DNA of 64,000 bases from Candidatus Moraniibacteriota bacterium (lineage in GTDB: Bacteria; Patescibacteriota; Minisyncoccia; Moranbacterales; UBA1568), in assembly GCA_963743885.1 (NCBI GenBank), contig CAVURJ010000001.1, forward strand, positions 279,488-343,487, given 5' to 3'. Under the pieces are notes generated by a model, which was not told where the DNA came from, ran no database searches, and saw only the letters and a program-made list of their open reading frames with translations. Of the stretch, positions 2,730 to 58,423 are shown piece by piece. Position 1 is the stretch's first letter. The number at the start of each line of letters is the position of its first letter. A program made the position numbers and the translations under genes.

Positions 2730-3980
2730 ATGTTGTATCTATACTCTCATCGCCGATCAACCAAGCACCGCCGATTCCTGCTCGCGGCCGCTTTGACGGC
2801 GGTTATTTCTGTTGGCTCGTACGTATTCTTCCGCAATCTGCCGCCTGCATCGCAGGATGAGGGGAAAAGAGCCGAAGAGGCGATATCCGAAGAGCAGGTG
2901 CCGCTCATCGAGTGGGTCGACCCAGATCCGGATTTTGGCAAGGATATGCCACAGTATGAGGTGGATGAGTGGCCGACGATTCCGATCCCGCCGGCGCCGG
3001 ATATGGCCCGCATGAAGCGGCAGGGGTGCGTGGCGGACGGTTTCCTTTCGGGCTATGGCGGCGATATCGACAGCTCCATCGCGCTCATCAATCGGTCGAA
3101 GTGTTACTATCTTCACCGGGCGCTCGAGACATGGCTTAAGCCGCCGGATTTCAAGTTGGCGAGGAAGATCCAGTCCAAGGTCACGAAGCCGAATACACTC
3201 TACGGCATGTTCATTGCGGAAGCTATTAGTACGAATGCTGATTACCAGTATCCGGCCGAGGACCGCGATTTCGATTTTAGCGAGATGTGTCGGCCGGGGA
3301 GTAAGAATTATTGGGGCGAACATACCTGCAAGCCGTCGCTTGATCGCAAGGAGTACCGTAAGTACCTGCACTATATCACCGAGCAGGCGATGGACATGGG
3401 TGTTCAGAGTTTCCTCTTCGGCCAGGTATTCTATCAGGATACGACGGAGTTCGAGCGATCAATCATGCCGGAAGTCATCCGAGAGATGCGTGAGTATGCC
3501 GATTTTCGCGGCATGAAGATCGTGATTGGCGCGCAGACGAACGATATCGTGGACGAACGGTATCTCAGGCTTTTCGATTTTATCGAAGGCGGCATCGGCC
3601 TCGGGTCGGATGGAAGCGTGGAAAGCGGGGCGTGCTTCTCGCGCTGGTGGAGCAAGCCCGGCGATTGGTGTTGGGCGCTCCTCTGGCATGACCGGTATGC
3701 CAAGAAGGCGAACAATGTTTTCCTTCACCTCGATTGGAGCGGCAAGATCGGCGATGATATGGACGTCTTCACCAAGATGGACAAGGATGAACGCGCCGCT
3801 GCGCTCAAGAAACTGTATACCTCCTTCACTTCGCGTGATTTCGGTTTCCTCATGCCGATGCTCGCGACACTCCACAAGGATGATGTCGGCTGCCGCGGTC
3901 CCAAGAAGCGCTTCTATTCTGCCAGCCGCAAGTATACGTGCCAGGATGAAGATGCTATCAATGTTATTTTGGGGAAATAG
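2730..3980 (+). CDS. Hypothetical membrane-anchored protein (N-terminal TM helix, large C-terminal domain)
   Basis: Long ORF. TM segment FLLAAALTAVISVGSYVFF just after the start; TATAAT at 2713-2718 precedes ATG 2730. No recognisable family. Confidence 0.55.
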   Translation: MLYLYSHRRSTKHRRFLLAAALTAVISVGSYVFFRNLPPASQDEGKRAEEAISEEQVPLIEWVDPDPDFGKDMPQYEVDEWPTIPIPPAPDMARMKRQGCVADGFLSGYGGDIDSSIALINRSKCYYLHRALETWLKPPDFKLARKIQSKVTKPNTLYGMFIAEAISTNADYQYPAEDRDFDFSEMCRPGSKNYWGEHTCKPSLDRKEYRKYLHYITEQAMDMGVQSFLFGQVFYQDTTEFERSIMPEVIREMREYADFRGMKIVIGAQTNDIVDERYLRLFDFIEGGIGLGSDGSVESGACFSRWWSKPGDWCWALLWHDRYAKKANNVFLHLDWSGKIGDDMDVFTKMDKDERAAALKKLYTSFTSRDFGFLMPMLATLHKDDVGCRGPKKRFYSASRKYTCQDEDAINVILGK

Positions 3981-4342: not shown

Positions 4343-4560
4343 TAGAAATAAAATCCGAAATCCGAAATTCTAAACACGAAACAAATCCTAATCTTGAAAT
4401 CCAAAACGAAAAACAAGGGTTTGAAATTTCAGTTTTTTGATTTTGAATTTGTTTAGAAATTAGGAATTAGATATTAGAAATTTCAAAAGCGATTGTTTTC
4501 GATAGGATTGTTTGATATCGATAGTGCAGAAGAAAAGAAAAACGGATATAAAAAGCCAAA
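4343..4560. repeat. AT-rich low-complexity intergenic repeat tract (aaatccgaaat / gattttgaattt k-mers)
   Basis: Shares k-mers with tracts at 15186-15326, 43545-43684, 48595-48692 and 48880-48920. Confidence 0.5.
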
Positions 4561-15185: not shown

Positions 15186-15326
15186 ATTGAAGAAATTCAA
15201 AATTTAAAATCACAAGCTCCAAATAAATTCAAAAACTATAATTTTAAAAATAAGATGCCCTTAAGATACTCTGAGTTTTGATATTGCAATTTATTTGATA
15301 TTTGTAATTTTGAATTTGGTGCTTTT
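15186..15326. repeat. AT-rich intergenic repeat (shares ~130 bp of motifs with 43545-43684)
   Basis: cacaagctccaaataaattcaaaa ... ttttgaatttggtgctttt versus tacaagctccaaataaacttcaaa ... ttttgaatttggtgctttc. Confidence 0.55.
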
Positions 15327-28888: not shown

Positions 28889-29926
28889 ATGGCCAAGGAA
28901 ACAAAGCCGGCGGCAGGGGAGAAGAACAAGATCGATAGCGTGCTCGATGCTATCCAAGAGAAGTACGGCGAGGGGATGATGATGAAGCTCGGCGATGTCC
29001 GCAAGGTGGACGTGGAGGTGATCCCGTCCGGCTCGATCTCGCTCGATATCGCGCTCGGGATCGGCGGCGTGCCACGTGGTCGCGTCATCGAAGTGTACGG
29101 TCCGGAGTCATCCGGCAAGACGACGCTTTCGCTCCATATCGTAGCCAATGCTCAGCGAGCAGGCGGCGTAGCGGCGTTTGTGGATGCCGAGCACGCGCTT
29201 GATCCGGAGTACGCCAAGCGTATTGGTGTGAATATCAATGATCTGCTCATCTCGCAGCCGGACAACGGCGAGCAGGCGCTCGATATCGTCGAGACGCTCG
29301 TACGTTCCAATATGGTGGATGTGATCGTCGTCGACTCGGTGGCGGCACTTGTACCGAAGGCGGAAATCGAGGGTGAGATGGGGGACCAGCATGTCGGCCG
29401 CCAGGCGCGGCTCATGTCGCAGGCGCTCAGGAAGCTCACGGCGATCATCGCCCGTTCCAACTCGACGGTCATCTTCATCAATCAGATCCGTATGAAGATC
29501 GGCGTCATGTTTGGCAACCCGGAGACGACGACCGGCGGCAACGCACTCAAGTTCTATTCGTCCGTTCGTCTCGAGGTGCGCCGCAGTGCGCAGATTAAGC
29601 GCGGCGAGGAAATTGTCGGCAACCGCACCAAAGTGAAGGTGGTCAAGAACAAGGTAGCAGCCCCGTTCCGCACCGCGGAATTTGATATCATGTATAACGA
29701 GGGTATCTCGCATGCGGGTGACACGCTCGATACAGGTGTCCAGTATGAAGTCGTCAAAAAATCAGGAAACTCGTTCGCATATGGCGAGGTGAAGCTCGGC
29801 GTGGGTCGCGAGAACGCCAAGAAGTTCCTCAAGGAGAACCCGAAGATCGAGAAGGAGATTGAGAAGGGGATCTTGAAGCAGGTGAAGGACGGCGTCGTGA
29901 AGGTGAAAGCCGAAGTCGCTGAATAA
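28889..29926 (+). CDS. recA: Recombinase RecA
   Basis: [10 protein letters not shown] Walker A and full-length RecA conservation. Confidence 0.95.
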
Positions 29927-30112
29927 TAGTTTTGAATTACGAAACCCCGTTCTTAGTTGTCATTCCCGCCCGCCTAGACGTCGAGGCTGGCGTAGGCGGG
30001 AATCCAGGTTCCCTCTGATAAGCTATACCTCTGGATCCCGGGTCAAGCCCGGGATGACAGAAAAAAGAGTTTCATAATTCAAAGTAATCAAGGGAATCAA
30101 GACGATTGTAAA

Positions 30113-34750: not shown

Positions 34751-34911
34751 GCCAAGAAAACGGGCGGTTTATCCGCCTGTTTTTTTGTCTGAAAAATCCC
34801 TTGGAAAAGGCAGAATAGAGCCATCCGAGAGGGTTGCTCTTTTCCAGAAAAACAGCTAGAATAAGGAAGGAGAAATATATCGGCAGAAGGCTGTTTTTTT
34901 ACTTTCCGCGT

Positions 34912-35289
34912 ATGTCGTTTTCCGCCTATCTCTGGGGGATACGCCTCCTGACGCTTCTCGCGTCGGCTGCTTGGATCGGGATCATAGTATCCATTGATCC
35001 GGAGCGGGGAGGCTCGGTCGGTGCGGCGCTTTTCTTCGTCAGCTTCTTCGCGATGCTGCTCGGAGTCATGACGCTTTCCGTCATCTGGGCGTATCGTAAG
35101 GCGCTCGGCGATGCCGGGGCCGCCCAGTATTCCGGAGGAGCATTCCGTCAAGCGCTTTTGCTTGCGGTTTTCGTTTCCGGCGCGGCGTTTCTGCAGTATA
35201 TGCGGCTCCTCACGTGGTGGGATGCAGCACTCCTTTTTTCGGCAGTGCTCGCTCTGGAATTCACCGCGAGACGGATGTTTCGGGCATGA
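34912..35289 (+). CDS. Hypothetical integral membrane protein
   Basis: Four predicted TM helices. ATG 34912 lacks an SD; a strong AAGGAAGGAG at 34863-34872 sits before an in-frame ATC, so the start is ambiguous. Confidence 0.45.
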   Translation: MSFSAYLWGIRLLTLLASAAWIGIIVSIDPERGGSVGAALFFVSFFAMLLGVMTLSVIWAYRKALGDAGAAQYSGGAFRQALLLAVFVSGAAFLQYMRLLTWWDAALLFSAVLALEFTARRMFRA

Positions 35290-35373: not shown

Positions 35374-35412
35374 CCCTGCCCGAATCGCTACGCGAAACGT
35401 TGCGGGCGGGGC
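35374..35412 (-). repeat. Single copy of the GC-rich ~40 nt unit that is tandemly duplicated inside pth
   Basis: The reverse complement ggccccgcccgcaacgtttcgcgtagcgattcgggcagg matches 43084-43122 almost exactly. Confidence 0.7.
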
Positions 35413-35504: not shown

Positions 35505-37556
35505 ATGGCAAACAAGAAAACCGATCAGGGAGGGTATAGTGCCAAATCCATCCAGGTGCTCGAAGGGCTCGACCCGGTGCGCAAGCGCCCGGGCATGTAT
35601 ATTGGCGGCACGTCGACGGAAGGGCTTCATCATCTTATCTGGGAAGTGGTCAACAACTCGATCGATGAGTCGATGGCTGGTCATTGTGATGAGATCATCA
35701 TCCGCATGCTGCCGGACAACTGGATTGAGGTCGTCGATAACGGCCGCGGCATCCCGGTAGAGATCCATCCACAGACCAAAAAGTCGACGCTTGAGACTGT
35801 ACTTACCATCCTTCATGCCGGCGGCAAGTTCGGTGGTGACGGCTACAAGATTTCCGGCGGTCTTCATGGCGTCGGTGTGTCTGTCGTAAACGCTTTGTCG
35901 GCCCATACGATCGCGACGGTAGGACGCGATGGCAAGATCTGGCGACAGGAGTTCAAGCAGGGCAAGTCCCAGGGAAACGTGAAGGCTATCGGCAAGTCCG
36001 ATAAGACCGGGACGACGATCGCATTCCAGGCTGATCCGGAAATCTTTCCGGAGATCGCTTATTCCTGGTCCAAGATCCTTGAATACGTCCGCTATCAGGC
36101 ATTCCTTACGAAGGGCGTGCGCATCCTCGTCGAGGATCGTCGCGAGGTGATGAGCGAAGAGGAAGCTTACAAGGCGAAGCGCCACGGCTTCTATTTCGAT
36201 TCGGGTATCATCTCCTTCGTGAAGCACTTGAACCGCAAGAAGGAAGTAAAGAACCAGACCCCGGTCTATATCGAGAAAACCATCGATGATATCTATGTCG
36301 AGGTGTCGTTCCAGTTCACGGATGGCTTCAAGGAGCATTTGTTCTCGTTTGCCAACAACATCCTCAATCCGGGCGGTGGTACGCATGTGACCGGCTTCAA
36401 GATGGCACTGACCCGCGTGCTGAATGATTATGCCAAGAAGAACAACCTCATCAAGGAGAAGGAAGGGTCCTTCACGTCCGATGACTTGCAGGAAGGTCTG
36501 ACAGCGGTCGTCTCGGTCAAGCTCGCCAATCCGCAGTTCGAAGGCCAGACCAAGGATAAGCTGAACAATGTCGAGGCACGCGGCGCCGTATCATCTGCGA
36601 CGACTGCCGGCTTGAACGAATTCCTTGAGACGCACCCGACCGATGCGCGTGCGATGATCGACAAGTGCCTTCTCACGGTGCGTGCCCGTATCGCGGCTCG
36701 TGCTGCCAAGGACGCTGTGCTCCGCAAAGGCGCGCTCGAGGGCATGACGCTTCCGGGCAAGCTCGCTGATTGCACGACTCGCGATGTCGAGCGCTCAGAG
36801 GTCTACATCGTCGAGGGCGATTCTGCAGGTGGCTCGGCCAAGCAGGGGCGCAACCGTGAGTTCCAGGCGATATTGCCGCTCCGTGGTAAGCTGGTGAACG
36901 TCGAAAAGACTTCGCTCGATAAGGTTGTGAAGTCCGATACCCTGAAGCCAATCATTATCGCACTCGGCGTAGGCATTGGCGAGACGTTCGATATCGCGAA
37001 GCTCCGCTATGGCAAGGTCATCATCATGGCCGACGCCGACGTCGACGGTTCGCACATCCGTACGCTGCTTCTCACGTTCTTCTACCGCTACTACGAGGCG
37101 CTCGTGCGTGGTGGTCATATCTATATCGCCCAGCCGCCGCTCTATCGTCTCCAGAGGGGCAAGGATGTCCGCTATGCCTATACCGATGATGAGAAGCTCC
37201 GTATTCTCGAAGAGATGAAGCAGCTCGTCGCTGAGAAGTCTGCTGCCAAGAAGGCAAAGAAAGCCAAGGAAGAACCAGCGGAAGAGCCGGTAGCCGAAGT
37301 CTCGGCCGAGGGAAATGATGGATCAGAAACGATCGCCGGTGTAGTCATCCAGCGTTACAAAGGTCTCGGTGAGATGAACCCGGAGCAGCTCTGGGAAACG
37401 ACCATGAACCCTGACAACCGCGTGATGCTCAAGGTGAATATCGAGGATGCCGAGGAGGCTGATGAGCTTTTCGATATCCTCATGGGTAACGAAGTCGAGC
37501 CGCGCCGCCGCTTCATCCAGACGCACGCCAAGATGGTGAAGAATCTGGATGTCTAG
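35505..37556 (+). CDS. gyrB: DNA gyrase subunit B
   Basis: GHKL ATPase motifs (EVVNNSIDE, GLHGVG), TOPRIM, C-terminal K/E-rich insert. Could be ParE, but the size and context fit gyrB. Confidence 0.8.
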   Translation: MANKKTDQGGYSAKSIQVLEGLDPVRKRPGMYIGGTSTEGLHHLIWEVVNNSIDESMAGHCDEIIIRMLPDNWIEVVDNGRGIPVEIHPQTKKSTLETVLTILHAGGKFGGDGYKISGGLHGVGVSVVNALSAHTIATVGRDGKIWRQEFKQGKSQGNVKAIGKSDKTGTTIAFQADPEIFPEIAYSWSKILEYVRYQAFLTKGVRILVEDRREVMSEEEAYKAKRHGFYFDSGIISFVKHLNRKKEVKNQTPVYIEKTIDDIYVEVSFQFTDGFKEHLFSFANNILNPGGGTHVTGFKMALTRVLNDYAKKNNLIKEKEGSFTSDDLQEGLTAVVSVKLANPQFEGQTKDKLNNVEARGAVSSATTAGLNEFLETHPTDARAMIDKCLLTVRARIAARAAKDAVLRKGALEGMTLPGKLADCTTRDVERSEVYIVEGDSAGGSAKQGRNREFQAILPLRGKLVNVEKTSLDKVVKSDTLKPIIIALGVGIGETFDIAKLRYGKVIIMADADVDGSHIRTLLLTFFYRYYEALVRGGHIYIAQPPLYRLQRGKDVRYAYTDDEKLRILEEMKQLVAEKSAAKKAKKAKEEPAEEPVAEVSAEGNDGSETIAGVVIQRYKGLGEMNPEQLWETTMNPDNRVMLKVNIEDAEEADELFDILMGNEVEPRRRFIQTHAKMVKNLDV

Positions 37557-39004: not shown

Positions 39005-39628
39005 ATGGCTGCTCAAAAAGTGGTCGTCGATGGGTCGACTGTCTCGGCTCGTCAGATGAAGGATTTCTGGCGTCAGGTCGACGACGGATCGATTACGGGC
39101 GAGATACTCCAAGCAGTTCTTGAACATCGTAACCCGTTCGAGAAAGTGATCAACAATGCGATGTTCACCGTCACCTCCGATGGTCGCACCGGCGAAGAGT
39201 TCATTCGTGATTTCAAGCGGAACGACTACCGCGTCGGTGACTATGCATCGGATGTGATGCGGAAGCCCGCCTTCGTCGCCACGAACGACAAGACGTACCG
39301 ACTTGGCCTCATCAAGGGAGAAGAATTCTCCGATGCCGAGCGGTCGACGAAGAATATCTGTGCTGAAGCAGCTCGTCGAGGTTGGCTCACGCCACCGGCG
39401 GAAGTCGCGCCGCTCCTTCGGGAGACGGTCTCCGATGAAGAGATCAAGCATCTCGGTCTGTGGTGGCTCGTCGTTATGCACGAACCGATTATCGATTCCG
39501 ATGGCGGTGCGCGCTTGCTCGGCCTCCACCGCCACGGTGGTGGCCAGTGGCTCGACACGCGCTACGGCAAGCCAGGCCGTCGGTGGGGTCGTGAGGATGG
39601 GTTCCTGTTCCTTCTCCCGCAAGATTAG
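39005..39628 (+). CDS. Hypothetical protein (C-terminal ~40 aa duplicated downstream)
   Basis: 207 aa ORF with AGGAGAG SD. No family recognised. Confidence 0.55.
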   Translation: MAAQKVVVDGSTVSARQMKDFWRQVDDGSITGEILQAVLEHRNPFEKVINNAMFTVTSDGRTGEEFIRDFKRNDYRVGDYASDVMRKPAFVATNDKTYRLGLIKGEEFSDAERSTKNICAEAARRGWLTPPAEVAPLLRETVSDEEIKHLGLWWLVVMHEPIIDSDGGARLLGLHRHGGGQWLDTRYGKPGRRWGREDGFLFLLPQD

Positions 39629-39921: not shown

Positions 39922-40098
39922 TTGGTGGGTGGCGAATCGAAGGGTGGTGGCAAAGATGGAAAGCCGTACGTTTCCGATGGCGATGCGAACTTGCTCAACC
40001 TCAACCGCAACGATGATGGCCAGTGGCTCGACACGAACTACGACAAGCCAGACAATCGGTGGAATCGTGAGAATGGGTTCCTGTTCCTTCTCCCGCAA
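39922..40098 (+). pseudogene. Partial duplicate of the 3' end of the gene at 39005
   Basis: DNA 40015-40098 is ~85% identical to 39540-39622 (…GQWLDT.Y.KP..RW.RE.GFLFLLPQ). It has only a TTG start and no N-terminal domain. Confidence 0.5.
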
Positions 40099-40104
40099 CT
40101 CTCT

Positions 40105-40305
40105 TCATTTCTCTCCCTTCCTTGCGCTGGGAGAGTTTTGTTTCGAGAGCTGCCCGTTCCAGCCGCCGAGCATCCGACCGATTTCGTCGATTTTCTCGGA
40201 GAGAGCGATGTATTTCTTGGTATCGACTGATTTCGTTTCCCACAGAACGAGGAGAAGGACCTTGAGTGTGTCGACTTTTCGTATCGCATGGCGGACATAG
40301 GGCAT
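40105..40305 (-). CDS. Four-helix-bundle (23S rRNA IVS-type) family protein, C-terminal half or diverged
   Basis: ATG 40305 with AGGAAAAG SD. ETKSVDTKKYIALSEKIDEIGRMLGGW resembles DLGYISEEEYEELNEKLEEILKMLNGL of TIGR02436 proteins. The upstream in-frame region has a diverged N-half (VLDRPGFPRLSQ); the start is uncertain and may extend to TTG 40458. Confidence 0.4.
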   Translation of the reverse strand: MPYVRHAIRKVDTLKVLLLVLWETKSVDTKKYIALSEKIDEIGRMLGGWNGQLSKQNSPSARKGEK

Positions 40306-40563
40306 CTTTTCCTGCGGCGAGAGGAAAGCGGTTATGCCAGGCCAGCCGGCCTGACTAAGCCGTGGGAAACCAGGTCGATCGAGTACCTCGCAAACGAGGA
40401 AAAGATCAGCGACATCCAGTACTGGGATTTCGTGGCTACTGCCGACGACGGGAAGCAACTGTTCTACTTCATTGAAATGGATACATCTACGGGCTGGTTC
40501 CAGACGTTCTCTGGGACCAGGATCAATCCCGAGCAGGTGGACTTCCTGACGATGAAGGGGTGA
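40288..40563 (+). CDS. Hypothetical protein; the upstream extension of the 4HB gene (40306-40458) would be antisense to it
   Basis: 91 aa ORF with normal amino-acid composition and no SD. It overlaps the minus-strand gene by 18 nt. Only one of the two extents is likely correct. Confidence 0.3.
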   Translation: MADIGHLFLRREESGYARPAGLTKPWETRSIEYLANEEKISDIQYWDFVATADDGKQLFYFIEMDTSTGWFQTFSGTRINPEQVDFLTMKG

Positions 40564-40762
40564 TGAACCATATCGCCCAACAAGCCGCAGCGCACTCTCG
40601 TGCTCTGCGGTTTTTTCTATCCTTTGTTCTATTGACAAAAAAACTGAAAAATGCTACAGTTTTTTGTTGCATTAAATGCAACAAGTTTGTTGTTAGGCTC
40701 AATCTTATGAGCCAGCCAGCCGTCGGCTTTGGCGGTAGAGTTACTTAAAAACGAGGGCAGTC

Positions 40763-42908: not shown

Positions 42909-43532
42909 CTAGTGTTTCGTAGAGAGCCAGGTGAGAATCTCATCTTTCGCTTTCGGGAAGATTCCAGAAAGTTGCGCGAGCTCGTCGGAAGAGAGTTTGC
43001 CGAGGACGTAGTCGTGCGAAGGCCCGCCCACACCGCTTCGCGGAGTGCTTCGGGCAGGTTGGCAGGCGCCGAGGACCTCGGTCGGCCCGCCCGCAACGTT
43101 TCGCGTAGCGATTCGGGCAGGCCGGCCGATACCGAGACGGATGCGGAAGAAATCCTGGAGCCCGAGTTTGTCGATGATATCTTGCACGCCGTTGTGTCCG
43201 GCAGCGCGAGACGAGTCCGTCGTGCGGAGCGTGCCTGGGGCGATGTCGAGGTCATCATGGACGATAGTGATGTCGGACGGGGAGAGCTTATAGAAATGCA
43301 TGATCGATTGGACGGGTGTGCCGGATGTGTTCATGAAGGTTTCTGGTTTCATGATGATGACTTTTTCGGAGCCGATCATACCAGAGGAGAGCTCAGCCGA
43401 CAGCTTCTTGTCGGATCTGAACTCTTCGAAGCCGAGCTCCTTGCGGAGGAAGTCGACGAAGAGGAAGCCGGCGTTGTGCCGAGTCATGGAGTACTTTTCC
43501 CCTGGATTACCTAACCCTATAATTAATTTCAT
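42909..43532 (-). CDS. pth: Peptidyl-tRNA hydrolase with a ~33 aa in-frame insertion
   Basis: GLGNPG..Y..TRHNAGF, HDDLD, RLGIGRP...HDYVLGK. The inserted stretch between GIGRP and HDYVLGK is encoded by the tandem GC-rich repeats at 43021-43132. Confidence 0.85.
   Translation of the reverse strand: MKLIIGLGNPGEKYSMTRHNAGFLFVDFLRKELGFEEFRSDKKLSAELSSGMIGSEKVIIMKPETFMNTSGTPVQSIMHFYKLSPSDITIVHDDLDIAPGTLRTTDSSRAAGHNGVQDIIDKLGLQDFFRIRLGIGRPARIATRNVAGGPTEVLGACQPARSTPRSGVGGPSHDYVLGKLSSDELAQLSGIFPKAKDEILTWLSTKH
43021..43132. repeat. Tandem GC-rich repeat (two diverged ~50-60 nt units) lying in frame inside the pth coding sequence
   Basis: ggcccgcccacaccgcttcgcggagtgcttcgggcagg... followed by ggcccgcccgcaacgtttcgcgtagcgattcgggcagg... 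. The second unit is nearly identical to 35374-35412. Confidence 0.7.
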
Positions 43533-43544
43533 ATTTAAATTCAA

Positions 43545-43684
43545 AACTCAAAATTACAAGCTCCAAATAAACTTCAAATTTCAAATACAAAACCTAGAAC
43601 GTTTTGAATGTTTGGATTTTGATATTGTGATTTATTTGGAAATTGGGATTTTGAATTTGGTGCTTTCGGAGAGTATTTCATGTG
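43545..43684. repeat. AT-rich intergenic repeat, paralogous to 15186-15326
   Basis: Shared blocks tacaagctccaaataaacttcaaa and gattttgaatttggtgcttt. Confidence 0.55.
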
Positions 43685-45388: not shown

Positions 45389-46024
45389 ATGATGGAAGAC
45401 CCGAAAAAAGAGGCTGGCCAGCTGCCGCCGGAAGAGGAGTATCTGAGCATTGGCGGGCTGCTTTTGGAGATGGTCAAAGTGTTTCTCCTGGCCGTAGTTA
45501 TCATTATACCGGTCAGGGTCTTTTTGTTCCAGCCGTTCTTCGTCCAGGGCTCGAGCATGGAGCCGAACTTCGAAGACGGGCAGTATCTCGTCATCAGCGA
45601 GTTCGGCTACAAGCAGACGACCGTCGATGCTATCGAGAAGCTCGGCTTCACTGTTCGACCGTTCAAAGAGATTACGCGCCAGGACGTGGCGGTCTTCCGG
45701 TATCCGAAGCATCCGGAGCAGTACTTCATCAAGCGTGTCATCGGGCTTCCAGGCGAAGCCGTGGAGATCAAGAAGGGTAAGGTCATCATCTACAACGGCA
45801 TACATCCAGAGGGCTTTGCTCTCGATGAGAGCGCGTACCTGAGCCCGGCCGTCGTGACGCAGGATATGCCGCGCACCGAGGTTGGTGAGAATGAATACTT
45901 CATGATGGGTGATAACCGGACCCAGAGTTATGATTCCCGTTCTATCGGCCCGGTCAACAAGGACAAGATCATCGGACGCGTGCTCATGCGTGCCTGGCCG
46001 ATCGGATATTTCTCGGTTTACTAA
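45389..46024 (+). CDS. lepB: Signal peptidase I
   Basis: GSSMEP (catalytic Ser box), KRVIGLPGE, GDNRTQSYDSR. Confidence 0.85.
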   Translation: MMEDPKKEAGQLPPEEEYLSIGGLLLEMVKVFLLAVVIIIPVRVFLFQPFFVQGSSMEPNFEDGQYLVISEFGYKQTTVDAIEKLGFTVRPFKEITRQDVAVFRYPKHPEQYFIKRVIGLPGEAVEIKKGKVIIYNGIHPEGFALDESAYLSPAVVTQDMPRTEVGENEYFMMGDNRTQSYDSRSIGPVNKDKIIGRVLMRAWPIGYFSVY

Positions 46025-46061
46025 TCAATCGTTTCCTATTGTTATAACTAACGCTCGTGCT

Positions 46062-47540
46062 ATGGCTCAGAAGAAAACCGCCGCGAAGGCTGTGAAGAAG
46101 GCTCCAGCGAAGAAGAACAATCTGCCAGCTGGCGGAAAGAAGGATTCGACGAAGAAGACGGCCACCTCTGGTAAGCTGACAGCTCCGGCTGCCGCCCAGG
46201 AAGAGATGCTGCTCCAGGCGCTTCGCGGGATGCGCGATATCCTGCCGGATGAGCAGCCACATTGGGAGCGCGTGCGCCGGACGCTTACGCATGCCCAGCA
46301 GGAGTACGGCTTCCAGCGTATCGATCTGCCGACGGTGGAGTATGCGCACCTCTATCTGCGTACCATCGGCGAGGGTACTGATATTGTCGACAAGGAGATC
46401 TATCTCTTCAATACCCGTGGCGGCGACCGCGTGGCGCTCCGGCCTGAAATGACGGCTGGTCTCTGTCGCGCGTATATTGAGCACGGCATGAGCGTGCTTC
46501 CGAAGCCGATCAAGCTTTTCACGATGGGCCCGGTGTTCCGTTATGACCGTCCGCAGGAGGGGCGCTACCGTGAGCACTGGCAGGCCAATTTCGATATGTT
46601 CGGCGAGAGCGACCCGATCCTCGATGCGCAGGCGATCCAGCTTGCTTATCGCGTAGTGAGCCAGCTTGGCCTCAAGAATATCGAGTTCCAGGTCAATTCC
46701 ATTGGCACGCCGGAATCCCGCAAGGAGTATTCCAAGGCGCTGGTCCGCTATCTGGAATCCCAGAAGCACAAGCTCTGCCAGAACTGCCGTGAACGCCTGG
46801 TCACGAATCCGATGCGTGTGATCGACTGCAAGGAGGACAAGTGCATCCAGCTGACAGCTCAGGCACCGCAGTCTCTCGACTATCTCGACCAGGATTCCCG
46901 CAACCACTTTAAGCGCCTGCTTGAGTACCTCGATGAGCTCGAGCTGCCGTACACCATCAATACCCGGCTCGTGCGCGGCCTCGACTACTATACCAATACG
47001 GTCTTCGAGATTCGCTCGACTGACAAGGAGGGCCGCAACTACTCGCTCGGCGGCGGCGGACGCTATGATCGTCTCATAGAGCAGTTGGGCGGCGAGCCGA
47101 CCCCGGCTATCGGATTTGGTCTTGGTCTCGACCGCATCGTGCTCGAGATGAAGCGTACTCAGGTCAAGCCGTACGAGCAGCCGAAGGCCAAAGTCTTCCT
47201 CGCACAGCTTGGTGATATGGCCAAGAAGAAGAGTCTCCGATTGTTCGCTGATCTCGAGAAGAGCGGCATCATCATCGCTGAATCATTCGGCCGTGGCAGC
47301 CTCAAGTCGCAGCTCCGCGTGGCCAACCGGCTCGGCGTCGAAGTGACGATCATCATCGGCCAGAAGGAGGCGCTCGATGGTACAGCAATCATGAAGGACA
47401 TGGTCTCCGGTACGCAGGAAACGGTCATCCAAGAGAAGCTCGTTGATGCTGTGAAGAAGATCTTGAAGAGCAATCAGGCGCTCGGCCCGGTCGTACCGCT
47501 CCAGAAGCCGACCGATGAAGACGAAGCTGAAGGAGAGTAA
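46062..47540 (+). CDS. hisS: Histidyl-tRNA synthetase with a K/A/P-rich N-terminal extension
   Basis: ALRGMRDILP (HisRS motif 1 region), class II core, C-terminal anticodon-binding domain. ~40 aa basic extension AQKKTAAKAVKKAPAKK... precedes it. Confidence 0.85.
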   Translation: MAQKKTAAKAVKKAPAKKNNLPAGGKKDSTKKTATSGKLTAPAAAQEEMLLQALRGMRDILPDEQPHWERVRRTLTHAQQEYGFQRIDLPTVEYAHLYLRTIGEGTDIVDKEIYLFNTRGGDRVALRPEMTAGLCRAYIEHGMSVLPKPIKLFTMGPVFRYDRPQEGRYREHWQANFDMFGESDPILDAQAIQLAYRVVSQLGLKNIEFQVNSIGTPESRKEYSKALVRYLESQKHKLCQNCRERLVTNPMRVIDCKEDKCIQLTAQAPQSLDYLDQDSRNHFKRLLEYLDELELPYTINTRLVRGLDYYTNTVFEIRSTDKEGRNYSLGGGGRYDRLIEQLGGEPTPAIGFGLGLDRIVLEMKRTQVKPYEQPKAKVFLAQLGDMAKKKSLRLFADLEKSGIIIAESFGRGSLKSQLRVANRLGVEVTIIIGQKEALDGTAIMKDMVSGTQETVIQEKLVDAVKKILKSNQALGPVVPLQKPTDEDEAEGE

Positions 47541-48520: not shown

Positions 48521-48692
48521 TATCGGCTGTTTTTCAGTGCGATTGCCAGGCCATCGAGATGTCTTTTGTGGGACATGGCGGTGGCCTGGTTGTGTTTTTG
48601 AAATCCAAAAATCAAAATCACAAATCCCAAACAAGTTCCAATGACCGAAATTCAAAATCCGAAACGTTTTGAGTTTTGATGGTTGGGATTTA

Positions 48693-48870
48693 TTACCAAG
48701 TGTAGTGAGTGAAACGAGAGTTTACTCTCGTTTCCGAACGGAGCGCAGGTAAAATCGGGTTGAATACCTCGCGGCTTGCCCGCCTAGCCGGCGAGGCTGG
48801 CCGCAGAATAAAACGAACATCAGTTCGTTTTTAGGGTCCAGGGCTTGCCCTGGGGTGAATACCCGTTATA
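48693..48870 (+). repeat. Copy Y of the ~170 bp structured repeat family (with a 21 nt internal insert)
   Basis: Aligns with 58263-58423 and with the reverse complement of 1382-1540. Hairpins with CUUG loops and compensatory stem changes. Confidence 0.75.
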
Positions 48871-48920
48871 ATTTATTTGTGAATTGTGATTTTGAATTTT
48901 GTATTTTTAAGGAAAAAGAT

Positions 48921-56044: not shown

Positions 56045-56855
56045 CCTGGCGATAGCGGTTCTTTTGCTGTGGTCGCTTTCGTCTCTCATCGCCGAGCAAA
56101 GCGACGTCACGGAGATAACCTTCCTTGATGTTGGCGAGGGCGATGCGATTCTCATCTCTCAGGGAGCGCATCAGATCTTGATCGACGGCGGCCGTGACGG
56201 CCGCGATCTGCTCTACCGTCTCGGTCGGCACGTGCCGTTCTGGGACCGCCGGATCGAAGTCGTCATCGCGACGCATCCGGATGCGGACCATATTGGAGGA
56301 TTGGTCACGCTCATGAGGACGTATCGGATCGGGCAGGTGCTCACGACGGGGGCTGAGAGTGATACCGATATATCGCGGCTGTTCCGCAAAGCGGCGGATC
56401 AATCAGCACCGGACCGGCAGGAGAAGATCTTCCGCGGAGCGATTATTCGTCTGCCTCGCGGCGGAGAGATCGTTGCTGAGTATCCACTGGCGCCTGTCGA
56501 GGGCATGCCGGAGAATACCAATGCGAGCAGTCTGGTGCTGCGGTTCACCTACGGAGAAACGAGCTTCCTTTTGACGGGCGATCTGCCGCAGGAAGAAGCG
56601 GCGCTGCCAGGCGAGCAGCCGGTGACGGTGCTCAAAGTCTCGCATCATGGATCGAAGTATTCGACGAGCGACGCTTTCCTTGATCTGGTTCAGCCGAAGG
56701 AAGCAGTCATCTCGGTCGGGGAGAACAAATACGGGCATCCGGGAGTCGAAGTGCTTGAGAGGCTCGCGCGCCGCGGTACCGCCATCTATCGTACTGATCT
56801 TGACGGGGATGTCACGTATACCTGTCGTGAGGAGCAGTGCCAGAAGGCAGAGTAG
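55992..56855 (+). CDS. comEC: ComEC C-terminal metallo-beta-lactamase domain (continuation of comEC after a +1 shift at A6 56000-56005)
   Basis: TM helix FLFLAVASLAIAVLLLW then ITFLDVGEGDAILISQG...HHGSKYSTS MBL-fold motifs. Removing one A from the 6-A run fuses it in frame to 54545... Confidence 0.7.
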   Translation: MPGKNVVPKRFLFLAVASLAIAVLLLWSLSSLIAEQSDVTEITFLDVGEGDAILISQGAHQILIDGGRDGRDLLYRLGRHVPFWDRRIEVVIATHPDADHIGGLVTLMRTYRIGQVLTTGAESDTDISRLFRKAADQSAPDRQEKIFRGAIIRLPRGGEIVAEYPLAPVEGMPENTNASSLVLRFTYGETSFLLTGDLPQEEAALPGEQPVTVLKVSHHGSKYSTSDAFLDLVQPKEAVISVGENKYGHPGVEVLERLARRGTAIYRTDLDGDVTYTCREEQCQKAE

Positions 56856-56935
56856 CGGCTGGGTATTGCCTTTTCCTTCATTTCGTGTTACCATTGCTAC
56901 GTAGTGATAATTTTTGCATAACAGAGCGTACATAT

Positions 56936-57541
56936 ATGGAGATGCATCCGAAGAAAGAGCGATCGCTCGTCATCATCAAGCCGGACGGAGTCCAGCGCGC
57001 CCTTATGGGGGAGATTATTTCTCGCTTTGAGCGTACCGGTCTCAAGTTCATCTCGATGAAGCTCATCGTTCCGAAGGCGGAACAGTGCTGGGCGCACTAC
57101 AACAAGGACGATGAATGGTTCATGAAGAAGGGGACGCGCGTCGTCGAAGACCGCAAGACCCATGGCTTGCCGATCGAGAAGGAAGCGATGGAGTACGGCA
57201 AGGACATCATCCAGTCGAACGTTGATTTCTTCACATCCGGTCCAGTGCTCGCGATGGTCATCGAGGGCAACCAGTCGGTCGCTATCGTGAAGAAGATCGT
57301 GGGCGGCACTGAGCCGACGACGTCGGATGTCGGTACGATCCGCGGCGATTTGACCGTCGATTCCTACGCACTCTCGAGCCTCGACAACCGTGCGGTCCGC
57401 AATCTCATCCATTGCTCGGATAGCCCGGAGGAAGCTGAGCGCGAACTCCAGATCTGGTTTACCAAGGAAGAGCTCATCGGCTACCGTTTGGTGCAGGAGC
57501 AGATTCTCTACGATGTGAACCTCGACGGTATCTTGGAATAG
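56936..57541 (+). CDS. ndk: Nucleoside diphosphate kinase with a ~30 aa internal insertion and a C-terminal extension
   Basis: LVIIKPDGVQRALMGEIISRFE, NHYKE-like AHYNKD, FFTSGPVLAMVIEG, HCSDS active-site His region. Confidence 0.8.
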   Translation: MEMHPKKERSLVIIKPDGVQRALMGEIISRFERTGLKFISMKLIVPKAEQCWAHYNKDDEWFMKKGTRVVEDRKTHGLPIEKEAMEYGKDIIQSNVDFFTSGPVLAMVIEGNQSVAIVKKIVGGTEPTTSDVGTIRGDLTVDSYALSSLDNRAVRNLIHCSDSPEEAERELQIWFTKEELIGYRLVQEQILYDVNLDGILE

Positions 57542-58210: not shown

Positions 58211-58262
58211 CCGCAACAGCGGCGACAAGAAAGGGGCTTTCCACAAGAGAGCTCCTTTTCAA

Positions 58263-58423
58263 TTACCAAGCGGAGTGAGTGAAACGAAAACTTGTTTTCG
58301 TTTCCGAACGGAGCGCTGGTAAAATCGGGTCAGATACCCCGCGTCTTGCCGCGGAACAGGACAATCCGACGAAAGGAGGATTGTACGGGGTGCGGGGCTT
58401 GCCCCGCGGTGAATACCCGTTAT
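58263..58423 (+). repeat. Copy Z of the ~170 bp structured repeat family, upstream of tRNA-Pro(GGG)
   Basis: ttaccaagcggagtgagtgaaacgaaaacttgttttcgtttccgaacggagcgctggtaaaatcgggtcagatacc...gggcttgccccgcggtgaatacccgttat. Confidence 0.75.

Follow-up and report, generated by a model that had tools for sequence, protein, structure and literature searches.

A 36-nt palindromic element, probably mobile, inserted twice in frame in the peptidyl-tRNA hydrolase gene of a Candidatus Moraniibacteriota bacterium

Short palindromic repeats that enter bacterial genes have been described in several systems. The Rickettsia palindromic elements (RPE) are about 100-150 bp long and, in the summaries of Ogata et al. 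2000 given by PMC10969869 and PMC3733652, are restricted to Rickettsia; they end in a CGTC tag (PMC3733652). Repetitive extragenic palindromes (REP) are 20-40 nt long with GTAG or CGTC end tags, the GTAG REPs occurring with REP-associated tyrosine transposase (RAYT) genes (PMC3733652, PMC3116915). Intragenic REP copies are known, some of them within repair and replication genes and some at similar positions in orthologues (PMC3733652). Bacterial miniature inverted-repeat transposable elements (MITE), such as Correia, ERIC and Nezha, are typically 70-500 bp, AT-rich and flanked by target-site duplications (review PMC10969869). Here a 36-nt palindromic element is described from a 64-kb stretch of contig CAVURJ010000001.1 of a Candidatus Moraniibacteriota bacterium (the window), where it lies twice inside pth, the gene for peptidyl-tRNA hydrolase (Pth), and once between genes. 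The two units in pth were read, with a probability of about 0.78, as independent insertions of a non-autonomous palindromic mobile element that resembles REP and RPE.

Pth was compared with its 119 closest proteins (120 sequences with the window Pth), from Moranbacteria-like Patescibacteria and mostly of about 180 amino acids. The loop of the window protein reads GIGR-PARIATRNVAGG-PTEVLGACQ-PARSTPRSGVGG-PSHDYVLG, and the nearest orthologues, 75-78% identical in the core, show the empty loop GIGH-PTEVLGACM-PSHDYVLQ. Copy 1 was inserted between the codons for R142 and P155 (GIGR/../PTEV) and copy 2 between GACQ and PSHDY, the trailing PS being native; the predicted junction peptides include GIGRPARIATR and KPARNASPARNDSR. 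In the DNA of orthologue L003 the empty site reads GGT CAT/CCG ACT GAA GTC CTT GGC GCG TGT ATG/CCG TCA CAT, and the window reads GGC CGG/36 nt/CCG ACC GAG GTC CTC GGC GCC TGC CAA/36 nt/CCT TCG CAC. Relative to L003, the window gene has gained exactly 12 codons (36 nt) twice, at codon boundaries separated by 27 nt. The segment between the insertions is PTEVLGACM in the closest orthologues and follows xEVxGxC in 100 of the 120 sequences.

The original prediction had placed a GC-rich tandem repeat here, encoding about 33 residues with no counterpart in canonical Pth. Its translation of Pth matched the open reading frame (ORF) exactly, and the orthologue alignment confirmed inserted sequence with empty sites in the closest relatives. 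The tandem arrangement did not hold: Tandem Repeats Finder (TRF) reported no array at 43021-43132, and the units are two separate 36-nt insertions around native PTEVLGACQ. Of the 33 residues, 11 belong to the native loop. The gene was hit twice, independently and by two subfamilies of the element; no single tandem duplication took place.

A repeat finder paired 35375-35410 with 43086-43121 as 100% complementary over exactly 36 nt, the identity stopping at both ends. The copy that had been predicted upstream of gyrB is therefore present and 36/36 identical, with its position corrected and its distance to gyrB 94 nt instead of 90. Its neighbours are gyrB on one side and, on the other, an unannotated ORF (34834-35289) that follows efp, and no promoter-like or terminator-like signal was found around it; a terminator or promoter reading was rejected on that ground. 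The added length at each pth site is the 36-nt core common to the intergenic copy, and the bases adjoining the core differ between copies. No target duplication consistent across the copies was found. A search for the repeat unit, covering the 64-kb window, returned this third copy: the degenerate unit occurred 3 times (43021-58, 43084-121 and 35375-412) vs 0 times in 100 shuffles. Coordinates are collected in Table 1.

Table 1. Features of the pth locus, the intergenic element copy and family members in Pth genes of relatives. Window coordinates are given for the window features and loop sites for the relatives; the strand of element copies is that of the canonical element strand.
Feature	Position	Strand	Description and basis
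Peptidyl-tRNA hydrolase (pth) ORF, host of both insertions	42909..43544	-	PF01195
Element copy 1 (Pth site 1)	43086..43121	-	CCTGCCCGAATCGCTACGCGAAACGTTGCGGGCGGG, 36 nt, encodes PARIATRNVAGG
Native Pth loop codons PTEVLGACQ between the insertions	43059..43085	-	27 nt, no repeat; orthologue conservation
Element copy 2 (Pth site 2), subfamily B	43023..43058	-	CCTGCCCGAAGCACTCCGCGAAGCGGTGTGGGCGGG, 36 nt, encodes PARSTPRSGVGG
Intergenic element copy	35375..35410	+	Identical to copy 1; 94 nt before gyrB ATG
gyrB (context only, outside the element)	35505..37556	+	Pfam DNA_gyraseB, Toprim, HATPase_c
L005	site 1		42-nt family member
L006	site 1 and site 2		45-nt family members
L089	site 2		45-nt family member
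L091	site 2		42-nt family member
L090	site 2		About 36-nt family member, decayed

Metagenomes were scanned with a pattern that fixed about 21 of the 36 element positions, comprising the termini and GCGAA and leaving 14 positions free, and at least 80 loci were returned. About 45 of these carried the same 36-mer or variants differing by 1-3 nt, on contigs of GC 0.32-0.59 with unrelated flanks, and the 14 free positions were near-identical across the copies; in all, at least about 50 copies of the 36-mer were seen in metagenome loci. The rest consisted of a 38-nt repeat of gut metagenomes, unrelated to the element, and of a few matches that arose by chance in high-GC DNA. The abundant unrelated repeat AGGGGCAGGGTTTGCCTGCCCGAATACA...TTTTCGGGCGGGCAAACCCCGCCCCT, on contigs of GC 0.40-0.48 from gut, fermentation and other metagenomes, had matched the pattern through its palindromic ends only (loci L012, L015, L018, L020-L022, L024, L028, L031, L032, L039, L042, L047, L056, L059, L060, L065, L066, L068, L070, L080 and L082). 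No element copies were found in viral contigs, PLSDB plasmids or GenBank phages. A 48-residue concatenated query of the element translations gave 11 word-sharing protein candidates, none of them scoring.

Eleven distinct 36-nt variants from the window and the metagenomes were aligned, and a covariance model was built from the alignment. The element is about 70% GC with conserved termini, CCYGCCCGAAUCG...GCGGGCGGG. One strand forms a hairpin with a 6-bp outer stem, a 5-nt CGAAU bulge, a 7-bp inner stem and a CGAAN loop; the outer stem carries a T.G at pair 3-34 in 10 of the 11 variants and the inner stem a conserved U.U mismatch at 15-27. Inner-stem pairs 13-29, 16-26 and 17-25 were changed on both sides, in compensation. 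Of the cells, 99% were paired, vs 41-53% when the partners were slid, and the covariation score lay above all 500 shuffles; because the search pattern had fixed the termini and GCGAA, only the inner positions are informative for covariation. The complementary strand scored about 33 bits vs 64, so the element is asymmetric. In the window the model found three copies only (E 2e-11, 2e-11 and 1.6e-10; next best E 0.75), scoring copy 1 at 64.3 bits (E 2e-11) and copy 2 at 60.0 bits (E 1.6e-10). Rfam gave no match at the gathering score, only sub-threshold microRNA-like hairpins (best 22 bits vs a gathering score of 83).

Copy 2 differs from copy 1 at 10 positions (26/36 identical), among them pairs 13-29 (G-C to A-U) and 16-26 (A-U to C-G). 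Its subfamily, with a CAC...GTG inner stem, was also present in L081 and L078, and copy 2 is a member of that subfamily, not a decayed copy 1.

The element was found in frame inside at least 12 gene families besides Pth, in either orientation. Ten host ORFs were confirmed by Pfam, with domain matches that span the insert: a radical-SAM RlmN-like protein, RecO, Fpg/MutM, ArgRS, TypA/BipA, PrfB, KsgA/RsmA, TatD, PolA and a glycosyltransferase. Three further hosts were assigned from ORF translations only: a PurL-like protein, a P-type ATPase and a DEAD-box helicase, the last recovered also as a called protein. The copy in DNA polymerase I stands directly after DPNLQNI-P. In two TatD hosts, 64% identical in TatD and 44% in MetRS at the amino acid level, one and the same TatD codon boundary holds a near-consensus copy, oriented oppositely in the two.

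Five of the six frames of the element are stop-free and the sixth contains TAG. Reverse frame 0 (PARN[DV]SRSDSGR) was the commonest in genes; forward frame 0 (PARIATRNVAGG) was used twice in Pth and in TatD and PolA, forward frame +2 (CPNRFANRSGR) in KsgA and reverse frame +1 (PPAPFRGAIRAG) in the glycosyltransferase. All genic copies are multiples of three (36, 42, 45 or 72 nt) and none uses the stop-containing frame, which is an indication that the insert is translated. Variants of 37 nt were intergenic only, one of them found by the contig scan in another Moraniibacteriota metagenome-assembled genome (MAG). The insert is probably translated and tolerated by its hosts.

Host identities were obtained by exact-sequence look-up. 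TypA of L052 is OGI64636.1 of Candidatus Nomurabacteria RIFCSPHIGHO2_01_FULL_39_10, the PrfB cluster is Nomurabacteria, and the proteins neighbouring the copies in L085 and L007 are Candidatus Moranbacteria. RpoC of L008 is 54% identical to RpoC of the window. Exact 36-mers were also found between genes in rhizosphere-soil contigs of GC 0.57-0.59 (L074 at 1754-1789, 3762-3797 and 3914-3949; L058 at 726-761), whose genes (DoxX-like, cupin-like and beta-propeller-like) are unlike those of Patescibacteria; these copies may represent spread across phyla.

At Nomurabacteria-type loci one copy sits exactly in the centre (18/18) of an inverted, diverged copy, making a 72-nt composite that encodes PARNA[AST]-PARNDSRSDSGRH-[SN][VD]AGG. 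The composite was found at no fewer than 8 different sites, TypA, ArgRS, RecO, PrfB and the ATPase among them, and therefore spreads as a unit. The element was also nested in other small hairpins, in L001, L041/L048 and L046.

Other small palindromes were observed alongside these. In the window a different GC-rich palindrome, ATTCCCGCCCGCCTA...TAGGCGGGAAT, lies at 29960-30005, just downstream of recA (28889-29926). In L041/L048 the 36-mer is flanked by hairpins of the type ATTCCCG...CGGGAAT. LeuRS of L008 contains a related palindrome, ATCCCCGCC...GGCGGGGAT, in frame (peptide IPARFAGAIARRAQAGI). Palindromes of this kind suggest that further families with in-frame copies exist; among the other GC-rich hairpins inside window genes, no further family with in-frame copies was found. 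A second small palindromic family, GCGGTCGCACCGCTCCAAAAGCGGAACGACCGC, was seen in a Moraniibacteriota MAG (L001 6000-6110 and L002 310-360), and in L001 a 37-nt variant of the main element sits in the loop of a GCGGTCGCACCGCTCCAAAAGCGGAACGACCGC palindrome.

The Pth loop is a recurrent site of insertion. A basal 18-residue loop was present in 100 of the 120 Pth sequences, and in roughly 17 of the 120 inserts of 8-30 residues occupy site 1, site 2 or the stretch between the two. Proteins with inserts are scattered, and their nearest neighbours, 88-96% identical, are empty. The 42-45-nt family members in relatives (Table 1) have the same termini as the 36-nt element and larger cores. Site 2 of L006, L089, L090 and L091 lies directly after the Cys codon in frame +1 (C-PPE...RAG-[MI]); site 2 of the window is one codon later, in frame 0. 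L087 carries a different GC-rich palindrome at site 1, where its relative L088, with a 96% identical Pth core, is empty; L087 2033-2689 and L088 395-937 differ by this 12-residue insert (PDHSPLHAGSETGT...). P0040 has, between sites 1 and 2, a peptide (...AGSETGRP) similar to the L087 insert; the Pth loop is thus used by two element families or more. Taken together, the sequences point to eight or more independent events in this loop, and not to one old insertion.

The pth ORF opens with TTG at 43544, and its true start is probably the ATG at 43532, as the orthologues begin MKLIIGLGNPG. PF01195 matched with E 6.9e-53 (protein residues 7-208 on profile positions 1-172). The invariant residues H23, N72, D97/D98, N118 and R134/R136 are retained in the orthologue alignment; the PF01195 domain, the catalytic His/Asp/Asn and the Pth fold place the protein in Pth1. 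An AlphaFold2 model calculated with the orthologue alignment gave 141 residues a predicted local distance difference test score (pLDDT) of 90 or above and a predicted template modelling score of 0.80. Against solved Pth structures its target-normalised TM-score was 0.8-0.89 (Foldseek). Alignments of the window protein to solved Pth structures were smooth up to residue 143-145 and ended there. Residues 145-174 had pLDDT below 50 and lie between strand 133-138 (RLGIG) and helix 176-181 (HDYVL). In the model the inserts thus occupy a disordered, low-confidence surface loop on an intact core. We take this segment to be the flexible lid loop beside the substrate cleft of Pth1 structures (e.g. M. 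tuberculosis 2Z2I). Since the modelled catalytic core is intact, the enzyme with its enlarged, disordered loop most likely still works.

AT-rich intergenic repeat pairs (AAATTCAAAA... / TTTTGATATTG...) were observed at 4351-4484, 15193-15325, 43537-43666 and 48601-48907, the third adjoining the pth start on its upstream side. These pairs may represent promoter or regulatory regions held in common.

These results bear out the original prediction of a small mobile or recombinogenic GC-rich element that entered an essential gene with the frame unbroken: empty sites were found, as were identical 36-mers elsewhere, in-frame copies in other genes, and a predicted position in a surface loop. How such an element would persist can be outlined. 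Selection would purge copies except in intergenic DNA or in permissive protein loops of these gene-dense genomes. The length of 12 codons, the five open frames and the Pro/Gly/Arg/Ser-rich translations would favour survival in genes; because five of six frames are stop-free, insertions in tolerant surface loops would survive as 12-residue loops rich in Pro, Ala, Arg, Ser and Gly. The element is probably selfish rather than functional. More speculatively, it would move as single-stranded hairpin DNA through a putative trans-acting enzyme of HUH/Y1 or other type, as in REP/RAYT and IS200/IS605. Transposition of the REP/RAYT or IS200/IS605 kind leaves no target duplication.

Several observations weigh against the reading as a mobile element. 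The element copy count covers the 64-kb window of a 652-kb genome, and the exact window Pth protein was recorded from one assembly only. A Pfam search of about 50 of the 61 greedy-called window ORFs gave no transposase or other candidate mobilising gene, and tblastn of 660 kb with IS200/IS608 TnpA probes, a weak test, found nothing. Neither a target-site consensus nor a duplication was definable across copies. Enrichment of insertions in hairpin loops was marginal (p about 0.03) and driven by the nested composite, and flank complementarity was only marginally above that of permuted flanks. The near-identity of the 36-mer, despite RpoC being 54% identical, could reflect functional constraint rather than recent movement.

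That constraint is the core of the alternative that survives best, although it was judged unlikely: the hairpin would be a recruited functional motif, for example one bound by a nucleoid, replication or RNA-binding factor or one acting as mRNA structure, kept by selection, with its spread secondary. Conservation across divergent hosts is extreme and includes the loop, the bulge, the U.U mismatch and the T.G pair, and compensatory changes preserve the stem even in genic copies. Such conservation fits recognition by a conserved protein and could equally reflect a host function. Genic copies, however, run both ways, about 10 with the complement in the mRNA vs 5 with the element strand; with both orientations in genes and the complement at about half the covariance score, a role at the mRNA level is unlikely. 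The positions are also unrelated to one another (loops of many enzymes, and intergenic sites lacking promoter or terminator signals), and Rfam holds no match.

It is improbable that the Pth inserts are ancient, present in a common ancestor of the insert-bearing lineages and precisely lost elsewhere. In the window, L005, L006 and L087, site 1 does fall at the same R/P codon boundary, with orientation and frame unchanged. Against this stand the scatter of insert-bearing Pth among empty near neighbours, the differing sizes and cores (36, 42 and 45 nt, with a different family in L087), the different position and frame of site 2 in the window and in other lineages, and the identity of copy 1 with both the family consensus and the intergenic copy.

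Removal of the blocks after transcription, as a mini-intron or RNA-processing hairpin that would leave a canonical Pth protein, was considered very improbable. The element does form a stable hairpin, and Patescibacteria have many introns in rRNA and tRNA genes (10.1101/2025.07.03.662931). The restriction of genic copies to multiples of three, outside the stop-containing frame, with 37-nt variants only between genes, speaks against excision, as do the two orientations in genes and the lack of a match to ribozyme or intron models. At 36 nt the element is also too small for a self-splicing intron.

An assembly or chimera artefact, from a repeat longer than the k-mer, is scarcely credible. Short repeats can mislead assemblers, and the exact Pth protein comes from a single assembly. 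Two exact 36-nt, frame-keeping insertions at codon boundaries would nevertheless be a remarkable accident, and related inserts stand at the same sites in other Pth genes. Insert-bearing TypA, PrfB, Fpg, RecO and ArgRS were found again, in identical form and on as many as 8 contigs, in assemblies from JGI, ENA, NCBI and Logan, which argues against assembly artefacts as a class.

Expansion of a lineage-specific loop by local tandem duplication or slippage, with no mobile element, would suit two units 63 nt apart with the same orientation, frame and termini, but it is in essence refuted: an identical copy of copy 1 lies 7.7 kb away at 35375-35410, and metagenomes hold the 36-mer across dozens of loci and genes unrelated to one another. 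Copy 2 matches copy 1 at only 26/36 positions, TRF gave no array, and the 27 nt between the units are native orthologue sequence.

Two repeat classes were also tried and rejected. A CRISPR repeat, which would stand in a regularly spaced array with unique spacers, did not fit, as nearly all loci are single-copy and no TRF array was found. DNA uptake sequences (USS/DUS) are short motifs that occur very densely, about once per kb, and originate through substitution, not insertion; the element has 3 copies in 64 kb and forms clean 36-nt insertions relative to the orthologues.

Beyond insertion into pth by a mobile element, a wider reading is possible but was held only tentatively, as rather less probable than its negation: the element would belong to an active, undescribed family of 36-nt hairpins that crosses phylum-level lineages of Patescibacteria, possibly reaching unrelated soil bacteria, with no recognisable transposase, and that generally supplies new surface loops to the essential proteins of ultra-small genomes. 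The movers could then be, for example, a new HUH-type enzyme, host replication or repair acting on hairpins, or competence uptake.

Other repeats and extensions were observed in the window. Two repeats of about 130 nt resemble a diversity-generating retroelement, with a variable repeat at 39493-39622 and a template at 39969-40098 that differ only where the template has A and the variable repeat has G or C. The variable repeat forms the 3' end of a 207-residue ORF (39005-39628, plus strand) with no Pfam hit, and the neighbouring ORF 40105-40638 (minus strand) has a weak bAvd-like match (E 7e-5, below the cut-off). A gene for a reverse transcriptase was looked for but not found. A composite repeat of about 90-150 nt with several hairpins occurs at 1401-1541, 48689-48853 and 58262-58356, with 80-93% identity and in both orientations. 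In the longest NDK ORF (56837-57541, 234 residues) a 33-residue leader precedes the likely start and Pfam matches two stretches; the longest HisRS ORF (45909-47540) has an N-terminal extension of about 106 residues. These may be matters of start-codon choice or lineage-specific extensions; no palindromic repeat was seen in either ORF.

Patescibacteria (the Candidate Phyla Radiation, CPR) have genomes among the smallest and most gene-dense of bacteria and are thought to carry little selfish DNA. A 36-nt element that persists hidden in essential genes as 12-residue loops, and recurs in the same protein loops across lineages, would explain odd lineage-specific inserts in CPR proteins and would affect alignments, phylogenies, structure prediction and annotation. 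Its copies would chart, by natural experiment, which loops of essential enzymes such as Pth, PolA, aminoacyl-tRNA synthetases and a release factor tolerate insertion. They also raise the question of what moves a 36-nt hairpin in genomes that have no obvious transposase.

No earlier description of the element sequence, its peptides or such elements in Patescibacteria was found in the literature searched or in Rfam. The element is like an RPE in being a palindromic repeat of a reduced-genome bacterium that lies in frame in many unrelated housekeeping genes and also between genes, and in adding a peptide segment to proteins that are probably still functional. It differs in its size of 36 nt (72 nt in the composite), in having no CGTC or GTAG tag, in its occurrence on Moranbacteria- and Nomurabacteria-type (Patescibacteria) contigs, and in its near-identity across hosts with RpoC only 54% identical. 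With REP it shares the form of a 20-40-nt imperfect palindrome with conserved mismatches, subfamilies with compensatory changes and no consistent target duplication. Unlike REP, it carries no terminal GTAG or CGTC, ending in CCTG... and ...CGGG with no conserved tetranucleotide in the flanks; an internal CTAC, which reads GTAG on the opposite strand, lacks conservation, being CTTC or CTCC in other copies. RAYT genes encode Y1/HUH transposases of the IS200/IS605 type and are often flanked by REPs; the Pfam scan of about 50 window ORFs and the weak tblastn search of 660 kb turned up none. The density is low (3 per 64 kb), a large share of the copies seen are inside genes, and most are single instead of the inverted pairs of REPIN and BIME.

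Like the MITEs, the element is non-autonomous, with terminal inverted repeats (CCYGCCCGAA...GGGCGGG), a variable core that gives 36-45 nt, and occasional in-frame fusions; it is half the size of the smallest MITE, about 70% GC, and shows no duplication consistent across copies. As a lead only, we compared it with the small dispersed repeats of cyanobacteria, reportedly described by Elhai et al. in Genome Res. in 2008 as palindromic, mobile and nesting units of about 21-27 nt that also lie inside genes. These are alike in tiny size, palindromy, nesting and genic copies, and differ in sequence, size and hosts. What is new in the present element is its family, its size class and its host range; the principle is already known from the RPEs of Rickettsia and from intragenic REPs.

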